From sequence record PZ019085.1: DNA of 64,000 bases. One strand, given 5' to 3'. Under the pieces are notes generated by a model. That model was not told where the DNA came from. It ran no database searches and was given only the letters and a program-made list of their open reading frames with translations. Source of the stretch: a phage. Position numbers and translations under genes: made by a program. Within the stretch, counting starts at the first letter, position 1, and every line of letters starts with the position of its first letter. Below are positions 18,766-58,265 of the stretch, in pieces.

Positions 18766-18773
18766 TATAAATA
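18766..18773 (+). promoter_or_regulatory. T4-type late promoter (TATAAATA) for gene 4
   Basis: plus-strand TATAAATA 27 nt upstream of the gene 4 ATG. Confidence 0.6.
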
Positions 18774-18780
18774 ATAATAC

Positions 18781-18788
18781 TATTTATA
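18781..18788 (-). promoter_or_regulatory. T4-type late promoter (TATAAATA) for gene 53
   Basis: minus-strand TATAAATA about 43 nt upstream of the gene 53 start; divergent from the gene 4 promoter. Confidence 0.55.
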
Positions 18789-20175: not shown

Positions 20176-20760
20176 ATGACTCGTCCAGCGAGACAGATTT
20201 TTAACCAAACAAATATAACAAACTTTGTTGTGGATATCCCAGATAGTACACGAACTTCAGGTTTTGTGCTCAATGCCCAAACGGCACCATTACCAGGTGT
20301 GAGAATTCCTGTTGTTGAAACTGTGACAGGCACAATGGGGTTAGGACGTGCAATGCGTGCAGGCACCACATTTGAATATGACCCTTTTATTGTACGATTT
20401 ATAGTTGATGAAGACATGACGTCCTGGATGAACATGTATAAATGGATGCTCAGCACTAATAACTATATAACTGGCCATAATACTGCACACTCTGATGGTC
20501 CTGAGTTTGTTACTTTGCACATTTTAAACAACAATAAGACCGAAGTAGTTTTGACGGCAAATTTCTATAAACCATGGATTTCTGATTTGAGTGAAATTGA
20601 ATTTAGTTACACTGAAGACTCTGACCCTGCCGTTACTTGCGTAGCAACTATTCATTACGCGTATATGACGATAGAAAAAGATGGCGAAGTCATTGTATCT
20701 CAACAACCACGTCAAGCGGTCGAATCTAAATCCATTTCTAGACACCCTTCCTTGCGTTAA
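20176..20760 (+). CDS. 3: tail completion / sheath stabiliser (T4 gp3-like)
   Basis: 194 aa from ATG 20176 (SD GAGG); position between 2 and 1 as in T4. Confidence 0.8.
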   Translation: MTRPARQIFNQTNITNFVVDIPDSTRTSGFVLNAQTAPLPGVRIPVVETVTGTMGLGRAMRAGTTFEYDPFIVRFIVDEDMTSWMNMYKWMLSTNNYITGHNTAHSDGPEFVTLHILNNNKTEVVLTANFYKPWISDLSEIEFSYTEDSDPAVTCVATIHYAYMTIEKDGEVIVSQQPRQAVESKSISRHPSLR

Positions 20761-20813
20761 TCGCTTCTAGCTCCGTATGTTATAATCACTCATAAATTAT
20801 ATGAGGAAAACCT

Positions 20814-21548
20814 ATGGAGCTAATCTTTTTAAGCGGCATCAAACGTAGTGGTAAAGACACCACCGCTGATTACATCAATTCAAACTTTAAATCCGTAAAA
20901 TATCAATTGGCATATCCGATTAAAGACGCTCTAGCAATAGCCTGGGGACGTAGGCATGCTGAAAATCCTGATGTATTCACAGAGTTGAAATACGAATACT
21001 TTGAAGGCATTGGATACGACCGTGAAACACCATTAAATCTCAATAAGTTGGATGTTATTGAATTATTGGAAGAAGCGCTAATTTATTTGCAAAGTCAATA
21101 TTTACCAATTAATAATGTTAAAGTATTATCATCGTTAGAAGGTGGATATTCGTATCTAGATATTAAACCATATGAAGCCCTGCGTGAAGCTATAAATAAT
21201 ATCAACGACACATGGTCAATCCGCCGTCTTATGCAAGCCCTCGGTACGGATGTTGTCGTTAATTTATTTGACCGTATGTATTGGGTTAAACTTTTTGCAT
21301 TAAACTATATGGATTATATTGGAAGCGATTTCGATTACTATGTTGTAACCGATACACGCCAAGTCCATGAAATGGAAACCGCTAGAGCGATGGGTGCTAC
21401 AGTTATTCATGTGGTTCGCTCTGGTACGGAATCCACCGATAAACATATTACAGAAGCTGGGTTGCCTATTGAAGAAGGCGATTTAGTTATTACAAACGAC
21501 GGCTCTTTAGAAGAGCTTTATTCTAAAATTGAAACAATCTTAAGGTAA
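20814..21548 (+). CDS. 1: deoxynucleoside monophosphate kinase
   Basis: 244 aa MELIFLSGIKRSGKDTTADYI... with P-loop; close match to T4 gp1 as recalled (..RMYWVKLFAL.., ..ARAMGATVIHVVR..). Confidence 0.9.
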   Translation: MELIFLSGIKRSGKDTTADYINSNFKSVKYQLAYPIKDALAIAWGRRHAENPDVFTELKYEYFEGIGYDRETPLNLNKLDVIELLEEALIYLQSQYLPINNVKVLSSLEGGYSYLDIKPYEALREAINNINDTWSIRRLMQALGTDVVVNLFDRMYWVKLFALNYMDYIGSDFDYYVVTDTRQVHEMETARAMGATVIHVVRSGTESTDKHITEAGLPIEEGDLVITNDGSLEELYSKIETILR

Positions 21549-30662: not shown

Positions 30663-30700
30663 GTTTACACAATTATAGGACTATGTTATAGTAGTCCTAT
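30663..30700 (+). promoter_or_regulatory. early promoter with inverted repeat (PeSL-like cassette)
   Basis: GTTTACACAATTATAGGACTATGTTATAGTAGTCCTAT. Confidence 0.55.
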
Positions 30701-31714: not shown

Positions 31715-32205
31715 TGATTAACAAAACATATTGGTCTAATATAGACGATGACAATGAAGGTATTTCATACTATTCAGTAGATTGGACAGGATGTCCATCC
31801 TACTTAGTGAAAAATATTTGCCAAGAATTTAAAATCGACCAGCCAGCAGGTATTATCGTGAACAGATACATTAATGGATATCAACCTATCGATGAAGTAA
31901 TACGAACAACTCAAGCTGAGCTTGAAAAGTTTTTCAATAAGTGCCAATGGATAACAGGATGGATTATATTTGTACCGTCTATATGGTTTTTCAGCACTAA
32001 GGTGAGTTCTTTCGGTTTTGTTGATATTATTGCTATCTTATTAGCATCTAGTATCATAAGTGTTGTTGGTGGCATCATTGGTGGCGGTACTGCAGCCATC
32101 ATTATTAATCTTGTTAAAAGTAGTTTACAGGAACGTAAAGACAAGATAAAGGCCAAGAATAATGAAGTTGAACGTTTTATTACCGAATGCAGGAATTTGA
32201 GATGA
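31714..32205 (+). CDS. membrane protein, C-terminal ERFITECR motif family
   Basis: 163 aa; TM segments WIIFVPSIWFF and IIAILLASSIISVVGGIIGGGTAAIII; C-terminus ...NNEVERFITECRNLR. Confidence 0.6.
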   Translation: MINKTYWSNIDDDNEGISYYSVDWTGCPSYLVKNICQEFKIDQPAGIIVNRYINGYQPIDEVIRTTQAELEKFFNKCQWITGWIIFVPSIWFFSTKVSSFGFVDIIAILLASSIISVVGGIIGGGTAAIIINLVKSSLQERKDKIKAKNNEVERFITECRNLR

Positions 32206-32438
32206 GTATAGCAATTTACATTAAATCAGAATCATGTGATTCTTATCTGTATTCCTATGATACCGGAACGTCAGAAGAGAAAATCAAAGAAGATTTAGAA
32301 AGCGACTTGGATATGTTCCGACCTATTTCTGATTATATGGTCCAAATATCTGATAGTGAAAGTCCGTCAACAGAAACATGTGTTGAACTTATTATACAAG
32401 ATATCTTTAAACAATCATGGGACCGAGATGATGAGTAA
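32202..32438 (+). CDS. hypothetical acidic protein
   Basis: 78 aa from ATG 32202 (SD AGGA); overlaps the nudE start; alternative start 32187. Confidence 0.5.
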   Translation: MSIAIYIKSESCDSYLYSYDTGTSEEKIKEDLESDLDMFRPISDYMVQISDSESPSTETCVELIIQDIFKQSWDRDDE

Positions 32439-32886
32439 GAAAAATAAAGTGAAAGAACTATCAGCCGGTATTATTTTCCTTACCGAAGATAAAGAATTAT
32501 TCATGGGGCGTGTAACTGGTTCTCGTCCTAAAGGTTCTTTAGCTCATCGGTGGGATATTCCTAAAGGTCGTGTCGAGCCCGGTGAATCTCCTATCGAAGC
32601 CGCTATTCGTGAATGCGAAGAAGAAACTGGGTTTACACAATATGACCCTGCCTTCCTGAAAGACCTAGGTGAACATCATTACTCAGACAATAAGAATATT
32701 CATCTGTTCCTATATACCATCCCTGTAGAGCACGAGCAATTCAGAAACAGTGTTTGTAATTCCTATCATACATTCCCAGACGGACGACAGATTCCTGAAT
32801 TTGATGCATTCGCTTTAATTAAACCTTCTCAATGGGAGTATGTAATGGGCAAATCATTATATAAGGTGCTCACTACCCTCCTATAA
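32428..32886 (+). CDS. nudE: Nudix hydrolase (T4 NudE / e.1-like)
   Basis: 152 aa from MMSKK; Nudix box GRVEPGESPIEAAIRECEEETGF; immediately upstream of e as in T4. Confidence 0.85.
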   Translation: MMSKKNKVKELSAGIIFLTEDKELFMGRVTGSRPKGSLAHRWDIPKGRVEPGESPIEAAIRECEEETGFTQYDPAFLKDLGEHHYSDNKNIHLFLYTIPVEHEQFRNSVCNSYHTFPDGRQIPEFDAFALIKPSQWEYVMGKSLYKVLTTLL

Positions 32887-32895
32887 GTAATAAAT

Positions 32896-32917
32896 ACCTC
32901 CTATAAACGTGGGAGGT
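32896..32917 (+). promoter_or_regulatory. SD-sequestering hairpin with late-promoter-like octamer in the loop, upstream of e
   Basis: ACCTCC-TATAAACGTG-GGAGGT: the 3' arm contains the lysozyme SD GGAGG; loop holds TATAAACG (6/8 match to TATAAATA); T4 gene e is known to be controlled this way. Confidence 0.45.
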
Positions 32918-32920
32918 ATT

Positions 32921-33409
32921 ATGAATATATTTGAAATGCTTCGTAATGACGAAGGTCTTAGACTGTCTTTATACAAAGACACTGAAGGCTTTTGGACGAT
33001 TGGCATAGGCCATTTAGTAACAAAGAACCCGTCTTTAGCCGTAGCTAAAGCTGAACTTGACAGAATGATCGGACGTAAATGCAACGGTACAATTACCCTT
33101 GATGAGGCTGAAAAGCTATTTAATGAAGACGTTGATAAAGCCGTTCGCGGAATCTTGGGTAATGCTAAACTTAAACCGGTATATGATTCTTTAGATGCGG
33201 TTCGTCGATGTGCATTGGTCAATATGGTCTTCCAAATGGGTGTAGCAGGCGTCGCTGGTTTTACTAATTCTCTTCGTATGCTTCAGCAGAAACGTTGGGA
33301 TGAAGCGGCAGTAAATCTAGCCCAATCTAAATGGTATCGTCAGACACCTAATCGCGCGAAACGCGTAATCTCAACATTTAAAACAGGAACTTGGAAAGCG
33401 TATATATGA
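32921..33409 (+). CDS. e: endolysin (T4 lysozyme)
   Basis: 162 aa [32 protein letters not shown]...; close match to T4 lysozyme incl. catalytic E11, D20, T26 context. Confidence 0.95.
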
Positions 33410-33687
33410 AAACATATAGTGAATTTTTATCAGAATCTATTCTTAACGAAGCTACTGACACATTTGCAACTAAGCTAGGTGCAGCTTTGGTTGAAGCTGA
33501 AAGTCTATTAGCACGTATTTCTGAACTTGCTAGTAAGATAGATACTCGCAAATTTGAACGTACCAGCGATATCGTTAAGCTTGAAGCATTGTTGCGTATG
33601 TGCGATAAACCGGAAGAAATCGCTAAGAATGGCTCGCTAATGAAACAACGTCTTGAAAAATATATTTCAGGCGCTTCAGAAAAATAG
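33406..33687 (+). CDS. internal protein-like (capsid targeting sequence protein)
   Basis: 93 aa [16 protein letters not shown]...; CTS-like N-terminus; ATGA overlap with e stop; position of ipIII/ipII in T4. Confidence 0.65.
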
Positions 33688-33688
33688 T

Positions 33689-33725
33689 GTTTACTTCCTC
33701 CAAGGACTTTGATACTATACATTCA
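33689..33725 (+). promoter_or_regulatory. early promoter cassette
   Basis: GTTTAC...GATACTATAC upstream of denV. Confidence 0.5.
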
Positions 33726-33745
33726 TCAACTACTTGGAGGAAATT

Positions 33746-34159
33746 ATGACCCGTATCAATTTAACACTTGTTTCTGAACTGACCGACCAACATCTTATGG
33801 CAGAGTATCGTGAATTACCACGCGTATTTGGTGCAGTCCGTAAACATGTTCAAAACGGTAAACGTGTAAAGGATTTTAAAATCTCTCCAACATTTATCTT
33901 AGGCACAGGTCACGTAACATTCTTTTACGACAAACTCGAATTTTTACGTTTACGTCAAATCGAGCTAATCGCTGAATGCTTGAAACGTGGTTTCAAAATC
34001 AAGGACACGACTGTCCAGGATATTTCCGACATCCCTGCCGAATTTCGTAATAATTATGTCCCGTCCGAAGCGTCCATTGCGATAAGTCAAGCTCGCTTAG
34101 ATGAAAAAATTGCTCAACGTCCTACTTGGTACAAATACTATGGTAAATCAATTTACTAA
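33746..34159 (+). CDS. denV: endonuclease V (pyrimidine dimer DNA glycosylase)
   Basis: 137 aa [35 protein letters not shown]...; near-collinear with T4 DenV as recalled. Confidence 0.95.
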
Positions 34160-37240: not shown

Positions 37241-37244
37241 AGTA

Positions 37245-37285
37245 GTTTACTTCTCCTCTAGATGTGTTACTATAGACCTGTCAAC
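37245..37285 (+). promoter_or_regulatory. early promoter cassette (PeSL-like)
   Basis: GTTTAC...GTGTTACTATAGACCTGTCAAC upstream of regB. Confidence 0.5.
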
Positions 37286-37301
37286 TAGAGGAGAAATCAA
37301 A

Positions 37302-37760
37302 ATGACTATCAATTCAGACGTTTTTATCCGCCGTAATAAACTCCGTCGAATCTTTGAAACGGAGTTCCGCAAAATAAATGCCGGTATAAAAGATGCTGCA
37401 AAGTCTCTTGGACTACCAGGCTTTCATATCAAGTATTCTCAACATCTCTTAGATCGTGCCATCCAGAGAGAAATAGATGAGAACTACGTTTTTGAATTAT
37501 TTCGTAAAGTAAAAAATCATGTTAAAGAAGTTGCAGAATTTTTATCAATGCCGGCACGTCCAGATGTTGATGAAGATTTTGTCGAAGGCGTCGAATATCG
37601 CCCAGGCCGTTTAGAAATAACTGATGGAAATCTTTGGTTAGGACTTACAGTCTGTCGCGAAAATCCAGCATTCAAAATGAAGACTCTTCAATGCAGAATG
37701 GCTATTATTAACAGTAAACGACTACCAGGAAAAGCTTCTAAAGCAGTGATTAAAATCTAG
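37302..37760 (+). CDS. regB: RegB site-specific endoribonuclease
   Basis: 152 aa MTINSDVFIRRNKLRRIFETEFRKIN...; near-collinear with T4 RegB as recalled. Confidence 0.95.
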   Translation: MTINSDVFIRRNKLRRIFETEFRKINAGIKDAAKSLGLPGFHIKYSQHLLDRAIQREIDENYVFELFRKVKNHVKEVAEFLSMPARPDVDEDFVEGVEYRPGRLEITDGNLWLGLTVCRENPAFKMKTLQCRMAIINSKRLPGKASKAVIKI

Positions 37761-51063: not shown

Positions 51064-51489
51064 ATGAATATTTCTGAAACTCGCGGTAAATGGTTCAAGA
51101 TTGTTAAAGAAGATGAAGAACTACAAGACAAGTTTCCTGAATTAAAGAAAGATACGATCATCAAGGTAATTGGTACTACTACCGAAGATGGTTATGGCGA
51201 CCATGGCATTATCGAAGTGATGTTGAACACAGGTGAGAAACTTTGCATCTATGACCGTGATACTTCTCTTTGGTGCTTCTGGGAATCCCATTCAATAGAT
51301 GAACTCGAAGAAATTGATTCGGCTGATATTGCAGATGTGCTAGGTAGTAAACTTGGTGAATTCGAAGGTGAACGAATTTCTTATGCATTAGCTAAATTAG
51401 CCGGACAAGAAAATAACGACGGCTATGAAGGTAACCTGATGCAAGCAGCCGCAGAATACATTGAATATTTAGAAAGACGTTTAAGTTAA
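51064..51489 (+). CDS. hypothetical acidic protein (T4 pin position)
   Basis: 141-aa ORF immediately upstream of gene 49, where T4 carries pin; no sequence-level confirmation. Confidence 0.55.
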   Translation: MNISETRGKWFKIVKEDEELQDKFPELKKDTIIKVIGTTTEDGYGDHGIIEVMLNTGEKLCIYDRDTSLWCFWESHSIDELEEIDSADIADVLGSKLGEFEGERISYALAKLAGQENNDGYEGNLMQAAAEYIEYLERRLS

Positions 51490-51494
51490 TAAAT

Positions 51495-51519
51495 ACCCTT
51501 ATCTATTTAAGGTAAGGGT
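51495..51519 (+). promoter_or_regulatory. stem-loop upstream of gene 49
   Basis: ACCCTTA-(11 nt)-TAAGGGT inverted repeat 6 nt before the gene 49 ATG. Confidence 0.35.
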
Positions 51520-51524
51520 TTATC

Positions 51525-51998
51525 ATGTTATTATCAGGCGCAAAATATAAAGAAGAAAAACAAAAATTTTATGACGCACAGAACGGTAAGTGTCCTATTT
51601 GCCACCGCGAATTAGACCCTGATGTTCAAGGTAACCATCTTGACCACGACCATGAATTAAACGGGCCAAAAGCCGGTAGAGTTCGTGGATTACTCTGTAA
51701 TCTGTGCAACGCAGCAGAAGGTCAAATGAAGCATAAGTTCAACCGTTCTGGTCTTAAAGGCCGTGATGTCAACTACCTAGAATGGCTTGAATCTCTTCTT
51801 GATTATTTGAAACAAGATTATTCTGATAATAATATCCATCCTAATTTTGTTCCAGACAAAACTAAAGAGTTCTCAAGACTAGGTAAAGATGAAATGATGG
51901 CTGAGATGCTTCAAAGAGGATTTGAATATAATGAATCTGACACTAAAACACAGTTAATAGCTTCATTCAAAAAGCAGCTTAGAAAGAGTTTAAAATGA
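51525..51998 (+). CDS. 49: endonuclease VII (Holliday junction resolvase)
   Basis: 157 aa MLLSGAKYKEEKQKFYDAQNGKCPICHRELDP...; near-collinear with T4 endo VII as recalled. Confidence 0.95.
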   Translation: MLLSGAKYKEEKQKFYDAQNGKCPICHRELDPDVQGNHLDHDHELNGPKAGRVRGLLCNLCNAAEGQMKHKFNRSGLKGRDVNYLEWLESLLDYLKQDYSDNNIHPNFVPDKTKEFSRLGKDEMMAEMLQRGFEYNESDTKTQLIASFKKQLRKSLK

Positions 51999-57707: not shown

Positions 57708-58265
57708 ATGACTGAACAAAAACCTAAAAATAACTATGTGAATAATAAAGAGCTTCTCGCCGCTATAATCGAGTGGAAAAAGGAGCTCTTAAATAATAAA
57801 GACCCAAACAAAATTATTCGTCAGAATGATACCATCGGTTTAGCAATTATGCTTATTGCCGAAGGCCTGTCTAAACGTTTCAACTTTTCAGGATATACCC
57901 AGTCTTGGAAGCAGGAGATGATTGCAGATGGGATTGAAGCCTCTATTAAGGGACTTCATAATTTCGACGAAACTAAGTACAATAACCCACATGCATACAT
58001 AACTCGAGCTTGTTTTAATGCTTTTGTCCAACGTATCAAAAAAGAACGTAAGGAAGTTGCAAAGAAATATAGTTACTTCGTTCATAATGTCTACGACAGT
58101 CATGACGATGATATGGTAGCGTTAGTAGATGAAACGTTTATTCAAGACATCTACGATAAAATGACGCATTATGAAGAATCCGCTTATAAAGCTCCTGGGG
58201 CTGAAAAGAAGGAAGTTGTTAGCGATTCGCCTAGTTTGGATTTTTTATATGAGGATGACAATTGA
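57708..58265 (+). CDS. 55: late sigma factor gp55
   Basis: 185 aa from [27 protein letters not shown]...; near-collinear with T4 gp55 as recalled. Confidence 0.95.

Follow-up and report, generated by a model that had tools for sequence, protein, structure and literature searches.

Gene e and the hairpin over its ribosome-binding site

The stretch of phage DNA analysed here (sequence record PZ019085.1; 64,000 nucleotides, hereafter the window) belongs to Mosigvirus (RB69/JS09 group). Its positions 32500-33500 are 99.3% identical to vB_EcoM_TU01, with about 150 further records at 95-99%, and over the 60 nt upstream of gene e the window is letter-for-letter the same as RB69. The product of gene e matches wild-type T4 lysozyme (2LZM group) with E = 2.6e-89 over residues 1-161. 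Gene e is adjoined upstream by nudE, whose stop codon TAA occupies positions 32884-32886, and the gene order nudE, e, internal head protein, denV is the same in the window, T4 and RB69. The coordinates of all features are collected in Table 1. The start of e has been placed differently elsewhere: the RefSeq record of RB69 opens the gene (474 nt; position 65673, L057 5674) with the internal codon Met6 and not with the T4-equivalent ATG, and a mechanical list of open reading frames began the e frame of the window at GTG 32909, within the hairpin described below.

Table 1. Features of the window discussed in the text.
Feature	Position	Strand	Basis or detail
Gene 1 (dNMP kinase ortholog) start	20754-20843	+	AUG 20814 lies in the region paired with UAGCUCCGUA
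T4-early-type promoter-like site	30664..30692	+	Sequence, TTTACA-17-TATAGT with TG; nearest strong one upstream of e
nudE (NUDIX hydrolase)	32428..32886	+	Pfam NUDIX, E = 2e-16; TU01 annotation
AATAAATA, proposed gp55-type late promoter (-13 to -6, A(-13) variant)	32889..32896	+	Conservation, matrix score
Hairpin 5' arm AAUACCUCCUAU	32893..32904	+	Folding; anti-SD CCUCC at 32897-32901
Predicted 5' end of late transcript	32902..32903	+	+1 placed 6 nt after octamer, -13..-6 rule (PMC1524935)
TATAAACG, octamer of the earlier note	32902..32909	+	Positional counterpart of T4 proximal e late promoter
Hairpin loop AAAC, 4 nt	32905..32908	+	Folding
Hairpin 3' arm GUGGGAGGUAUU	32909..32920	+	Folding; SD GGAGG at 32912-32916
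Gene e, T4-type lysozyme/endolysin, 162 aa	32921..33409	+	T4 lysozyme match
denV leader	33686-33748	+	Anti-SD UUCCUCCAAG 33695-33704 pairs with CUUGGAGGAA 33733-33742; ATG 33746
regB leader	37242-37304	+	UUCUCCUCUAG 37251-37261 pairs with CUAGAGGAGAA 37285-37295; ATG 37302
Gene 49 (endonuclease VII ortholog) leader	51488-51527	+	Sequence, folding; AATAAATA 51488-51495, ATG 51525
Gene 55, late sigma factor	57708..58265	+	E = 3.7e-111 to T4 gp55 (PDB 7D7C chain F)

Ahead of e the letters read ACCTCC (32896-32901), TATAAACGTG (32902-32911) and GGAGGT (32912-32917), followed by the ATG at 32921-32923. An earlier note, made from the sequence alone, had proposed that ACCTCC and GGAGGT form a stem which holds the Shine-Dalgarno sequence (SD) GGAGG in its 3' arm and a late-promoter-like octamer, TATAAACG, in its loop. 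The letters and coordinates are as quoted there, and folding does place the SD in the 3' arm. The stem itself is real and far beyond chance, but its length had been understated: the helix is twice as long, with 12 bp, and directly abuts the ATG. Because it is longer than first described, half of the octamer is base-paired; only AAAC lies unpaired in the loop, while TAT and G of TATAAACG belong to the stem. The folding energy of 32890-32925, which the note had put forward as a check, is -16.3 kcal/mol at the minimum (MFE), compared with -4.7 +/- 2.1 kcal/mol for 200 dinucleotide shuffles (z -5.4), none of the 200 being as stable.

The same 12-bp helix is also the MFE structure in contexts of 91, 111, 191 and 291 nt. 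In read-through RNAs the computed probability of the SD being unpaired is 0.00, and opening positions 32910-32926 costs about 17 kcal/mol as computed in three read-through contexts. Compared across the window, the cost of opening the e ribosome-binding site (RBS), 16.4 kcal/mol, is the second highest of 80 candidate gene starts, for which the median is 4.8. Rfam, searched over 32600-33200 at E <= 1, returned no family. A 10-nt direct repeat, CCTCCTATAA, occurs on the + strand at 32877-32886 (last codons of nudE and its stop) and at 32897-32906; its upstream copy is not conserved in ESCO47 or in the Mosigvirus loci of IMG/VR. The second anti-SD that this copy offers at the end of nudE, CCUCC 32877-32881, was rejected as a part of the device, being used in no MFE structure and not conserved in ESCO47 or L003.

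A late promoter candidate whose downstream segment is the anti-SD

The octamer of late promoters spans -13 to -6 (PMC1524935). Immediately upstream of the anti-SD, AATAAATA matches the late consensus TATAAATA at seven of eight positions, the deviation being an A at -13. A(-13) is the commonest natural variant of late promoters: among the 50 T4 late promoters listed by Geiduschek and Kassavetis (PMC2988020), 32 are perfect, 9 carry A(-13) and 2 deviate at more than one position. In RB69 and related phages, moreover, T(-13) shows little conservation (Nolan et al., PMC1524935). From the 31 late promoters predicted for RB69 by Nolan 2006 (PMC1524935) we extracted 30 and built a scoring matrix. In these sites, A occupies -13 in 4 of 30 and -12, -9 and -8 in every case; T-7 is kept in 29 of 30 and A-6 likewise, and none deviates at both. 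The matrix is somewhat circular, the T4 consensus having served to predict its sites in the first place; on it, AATAAATA at 32889 scores 10.2 bits and falls within the top 17 of 127,948 positions, with a full-context score of only 6.9 bits (rank 59). Neither TATAAATA nor AATAAATA is found in the AT-rich window above shuffle expectation, so that motif counts alone are uninformative and the argument is carried by position and conservation.

As to position, the anti-SD CCUCC fills -5 to -1 of this promoter, and for that reason the late RNA is predicted to start just 3' of it. An RNA begun at the predicted start would be without 9 of the 12 nt of the 5' arm and without CCUCC, and for RNAs begun at 32901-32903 the computations give an RBS-opening cost of about 4.4 kcal/mol in place of about 17. 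In the predicted late RNA the SD is partly paired with coding sequence (P(unpaired) 0.21). The segment at -5 to -1, CCTCC, is GC-rich and thereby atypical for a class that is usually AT-rich there (PMC2988020). This is perhaps why the HMM scan of Nolan 2006 (PMC1524935) has no late promoter at RB69 e in its list. A literature search for genome-wide maps of transcription starts in T4 or RB69 gave nothing usable. We also considered TATAAGTA (32882-32889) as a promoter and rejected it; at -8, where gp55 takes up the base in a pocket, it has G, and the octamer is not conserved.

The window encodes its own late sigma factor (gene 55). Its product is identical to T4 gp55 at N13, L54, R57, F86, H95, Y97 and T99, the residues lining the pockets into which gp55 inserts A-12, A-9 and A-8 (PMC7892883), so the promoter rules of T4 should transfer to the window phage. 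Taking a late promoter as TATAAATA with at most one deviation and a cognate gp55, AATAAATA at 32889-32896 belongs to the class and TATAAACG at 32902-32909 falls outside it; by the same measure the e leader lacks a second late promoter inside the loop, which is a feature of T4 itself and not of the wider family. Judged from sequence, the operative late promoter is probably AATAAATA and not the loop octamer.

Transcription may also reach e from upstream. The promoter-like site at 30664-30692, of sigma-70/T4-early type, corresponds to a predicted early promoter of RB69, Pe:67959 (score 33.8; Nolan 2006, PMC1524935, Additional File 3). All open reading frames from this site to e lie on the + strand, and a scan of the same strand for terminators over this distance gave none that was convincing, with one weak match (31911-31925) located inside an open reading frame. 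Read-through into e is thus plausible, and the 30664 site is its presumed source.

Next we compared the e loci of IMG/VR (54 loci) and of GenBank phages and obtained 16 distinct leaders, representing about 8 genera. Mosigvirus, Tequatrovirus and Marfavirus were assigned by record taxonomy, and the other leaders were typed by exact matches to IME08, CC31, CGG4-1, VR20 and fHe-Yen9-01/phiR1-RT, which we take to represent Dhakavirus, Karamvirus, Gelderlandvirus, Gaprivervirus and Tegunavirus, respectively. When each sequence was folded on its own and the folds were anchored on the SD, a hairpin burying the SD was found in 16 of 16 leaders, its dG ranging between -7.5 and -16.6 kcal/mol. All 16 share an invariant ATAAATAC that borders the anti-SD on its 5' side; the base before it is T, A or G, and beyond that base the leaders can no longer be aligned. 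The helix of the Marfavirus and CC31-type leaders (CUCCUAUC/GAUAGGAG) excludes the octamer, which is invariant there as well, so that pairing cannot explain its conservation. The loop, on the other hand, is not conserved (TATAAATACT in T4 and AAAC in the window; AUACUC, AAUUA, AUUAGA and CUAACC elsewhere), and the pairs next to it are lineage-specific. In the VR20-type leader CCUCC/GGAGG has become CCCC/GGGG, which includes one compensatory change (U-A to C-G) in the SD helix.

A start at the predicted +1 drops 4-12 nt of the 5' arm in 16 of 16 leaders and always the anti-SD core; most of the arm is removed in every lineage except L025, the leader with the weakest stem. MAFFT and RNAalifold applied to the 16 leaders recovered 5 pairs only and no covariation; a 1-nt deletion and the variable loops had put the 5' arm out of register in the alignment, and covariation is thin because the ribosome constrains the SD. 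Among distant metagenomic relatives of e (L027-L037, 57% identity), a mini-hairpin, CUUCCUU-AAAUAA-AAGGAA(A), with an A/T-rich loop lies over an SD-like AAGGA about 30 nt before the e-like open reading frame; it may be an independent or a diverged version of the e device.

A probable promoter-dependent translational switch and its alternatives

We regard it as probable that the leader is a switch, orthologous to that of T4 gene e, by which translation of the endolysin gene depends on the promoter used, with AATAAATA as its late promoter. Early and middle RNAs would begin about 2 kb upstream, run through nudE and carry both arms of the hairpin, which would bury the SD GGAGG and abut the AUG, leaving no 30S binding and no early lysozyme. 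After replication, RNA polymerase with gp55, gp33 and gp45 would fire the late promoter at 32889-32896, and the resulting RNA, begun at about 32902-32903, could not form the hairpin and would be translated. The loop octamer would be what is left of the second T4 promoter and would mainly provide stem pairs. The sequence, the fold with its statistics, the conservation, the statistics of promoter variants and the identity of the gp55 pocket are direct observations; where late RNA starts, that upstream RNA reads through and what this does to translation we infer. That early RNA hides the SD and that late RNA, begun inside the structure, is translatable, as the earlier note had suggested, is supported in silico, conserved and documented in T4, while the promoter to which the note assigned the late start is probably not the right one.

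Some points favour TATAAACG as the operative late promoter, with late RNA beginning downstream of it. The octamer occupies the place of the proximal late promoter of T4 e, TATAAATA. The three bases that gp55 inserts into pockets, A-12, A-9 and A-8 (PMC7892883), are present in it, the Mosigvirus leaders examined all have it unaltered, and variant late promoters can work in vitro (PMC2988020). Its two deviations, however, affect both -7 and -6, which are near-invariant, a combination seen in none of the 30 predicted RB69 sites, and a T4 late promoter deviating more than once is as rare as stated above. Nor does the late-promoter-like quality of the octamer exceed chance: the window has 5 copies of it where 3.6 are expected, and on the RB69-site matrix its score is -0.3 bits, a value reached or surpassed at 1,323 positions of the window. 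The +1 predicted from it, G32915, lies inside GGAGG and halves the SD, leaving a 6-nt leader, GGUAUU, with only GG of it. Among the 16 leaders a loop element of this type is absent outside Tequatrovirus and Mosigvirus, the sequence at its place in other genera being unrelated, and where T4 has TA, the CG of the window gives the stem one more pair, U32904-G32909. Based on its scores, the +1 within the SD and this extra pair, we read TATAAACG as probably a decayed or never-completed counterpart of the second T4 promoter, whose main contribution is pairs to the stem. The assignment of the late start to TATAAACG is probably wrong; we consider it unlikely that this octamer is the operative promoter, and we likewise give it a small chance of having retained promoter activity.

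The hairpin might instead serve mainly the nudE operon, as an element at the end of its transcript that acts as a weak terminator, a processing barrier or a protection of GGAG from RegB. A GC-cored stem of 12 bp placed directly after the end of nudE would suit such a role, and GGAG, a RegB target motif according to the annotation note of RB69 regB, is double-stranded in it. Yet the hairpin has no U-run behind it and was not among the calls of the terminator scan, for which reasons we rejected it as a terminator; in T4, early RNA reads through into e (PMC3014915); and all lineages have the helix built specifically on the e SD, with its stem ending at the AUG. We hold a main role of this kind to be very unlikely. 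Hardly credible at all is the view that the complementarity is inherited sequence with no present function in the window phage. Descent from an ancestor shared with T4 accounts for the leader as such, but the device has been kept across about 8 genera, in which the lysozymes diverge down to 60% protein identity and flanks and loops are unalignable, with a compensatory change on the way, and the helix of the window is among the strongest of the set (-16.3 kcal/mol, against -13.3 in T4).

With AATAAATA as the promoter of the switch, what is conserved at the heart of the device is one late promoter, with the anti-SD as its -5 to -1 segment. The T4 safeguard against premature lysis would then be kept in RB69-type phages, a result of little import beyond annotation; it is useful for annotating late promoters, that of e having been missed in the published RB69 scan, and for engineering the timing of lysis in therapeutic Mosigvirus phages.

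Similar leaders in the window and known systems

The leader of gene 49 in the window has the same layout as that of e, and as the known case of T4 gene 49 (PMC3014915). Its hairpin, ACCCUUAUCU/AGGUAAGGGU (51495-51504 with 51510-51519), has 10 bp and -12.9 kcal/mol (z -3.6) and buries the SD; the corresponding RB69 site is TATAAATA, the predicted late promoter Pl:47792 (Nolan, PMC1524935), where the window has AATAAATA. For denV, the spacer between GTTTAC and TACTAT of an early-type promoter (RB69 Pe:64934) holds the anti-SD, and the denV SD would be free only in RNA from this proximal promoter and not in RNA reading through from e. In regB, UUCUCCUCUAG is contained in an early-type promoter (RB69 Pe:61376) and opening the RBS costs 14.0 kcal/mol. 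Gene 1 has the most occluded RBS of the window (16.5 kcal/mol, fold z -4.2), with UAGCUCCGUA just before TGTTATAAT, an extended -10-like element. The latter three genes rank among the most occluded RBSs, and their masking strands are inside or just before early- or middle-type promoters. Given these resemblances, the device looks recurrent in the genome and not peculiar to e. Whether the e hairpin is one case of a genome-wide rule, by which promoters of every temporal class contain anti-SD strands, is a more tentative matter, and we find it rather doubtful; if true, a gene would be translated only from the RNA of its own promoter. More narrowly, TATAAACG might be a functional gp55 promoter with two deviations, from which an almost leaderless e mRNA would come. 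Apart from these leaders, two TATAAATA octamers stand back to back on opposite strands at 18766-18788, between the divergent orthologs of late gene 4 and gene 53, and match RB69 Pl:80613 and Pl:80684.

Compared with the typical late promoters that depend on gp55 in T4 (TATAAATA at -13 to -6; PMC2988020, PMC1524935, PMC7892883), the candidate e promoter of the window agrees in its 7/8 match with the tolerated A(-13) and differs in the GC-rich unwound segment downstream, CCTCC. The active distal e promoter of T4 is similar in this respect, with CCTTC at -5 to -1. T4 genes 49, soc and I-TevI (PMC3014915 section 29) share with the proposed e switch of the window the principle that the choice of promoter decides whether the inhibitory 5' strand is present; they are other genes, with other helix sequences and leaders lacking sequence homology.

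The closest likeness is to T4 gene e. Its leader, TTTTATAAATACCTTCTATAAATACTTAGGAGGTATTATG, contains two perfect late octamers, the first bordering the anti-SD arm on its 5' side and the second within the loop. Early read-through RNA of T4 e forms an inhibitory structure, and lysozyme made from such RNA is about 100-fold lower (PMC3014915 section 29, citing McPheeters 1986); RNAs from either late e promoter are without the 5' strand and are well translated (PMC3014915, citing McPheeters 1986). The window has the orthologous gene and a homologous leader (AATAAATACCTCCTATAAACGTGGGAGGTATTATG, in T4 TATAAATACCTTCTATAAATACTTAGGAGGTATTATG), with the SD in the 3' arm, the anti-SD at -5 to -1 of a late promoter, and nudE upstream with read-through from early promoters, which is putative in the window. 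It differs in having one plausible late promoter where T4 has two, because the loop promoter TATAAATA of T4 is degenerate there (TA to CG), and in that the remaining promoter is an A(-13) variant. The stems differ as well: 12 bp with a 4-nt loop in the window, 11 bp with an 8-nt loop in T4, and since the T4 loop is longer (2 nt in this comparison), the proximal T4 promoter leaves GAGG intact. The arrangement with two promoters, one of them in the loop, appears to be a peculiarity of Tequatrovirus. Similar leaders with a late promoter in the region of the 5' strand have been predicted in close T4-type phages (Uzan and Miller 2010, PMC3014915, Fig. 5A), and RB69 is in neither of the lists given there of phages without e or without the structure. 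As the mechanism has been shown for T4 and similar leaders in its relatives are predicted in that review, what the earlier note described was already established knowledge: the device in the window is by design the textbook switch of T4 gene e, known in its mechanism and already extended in print to relatives of T4.
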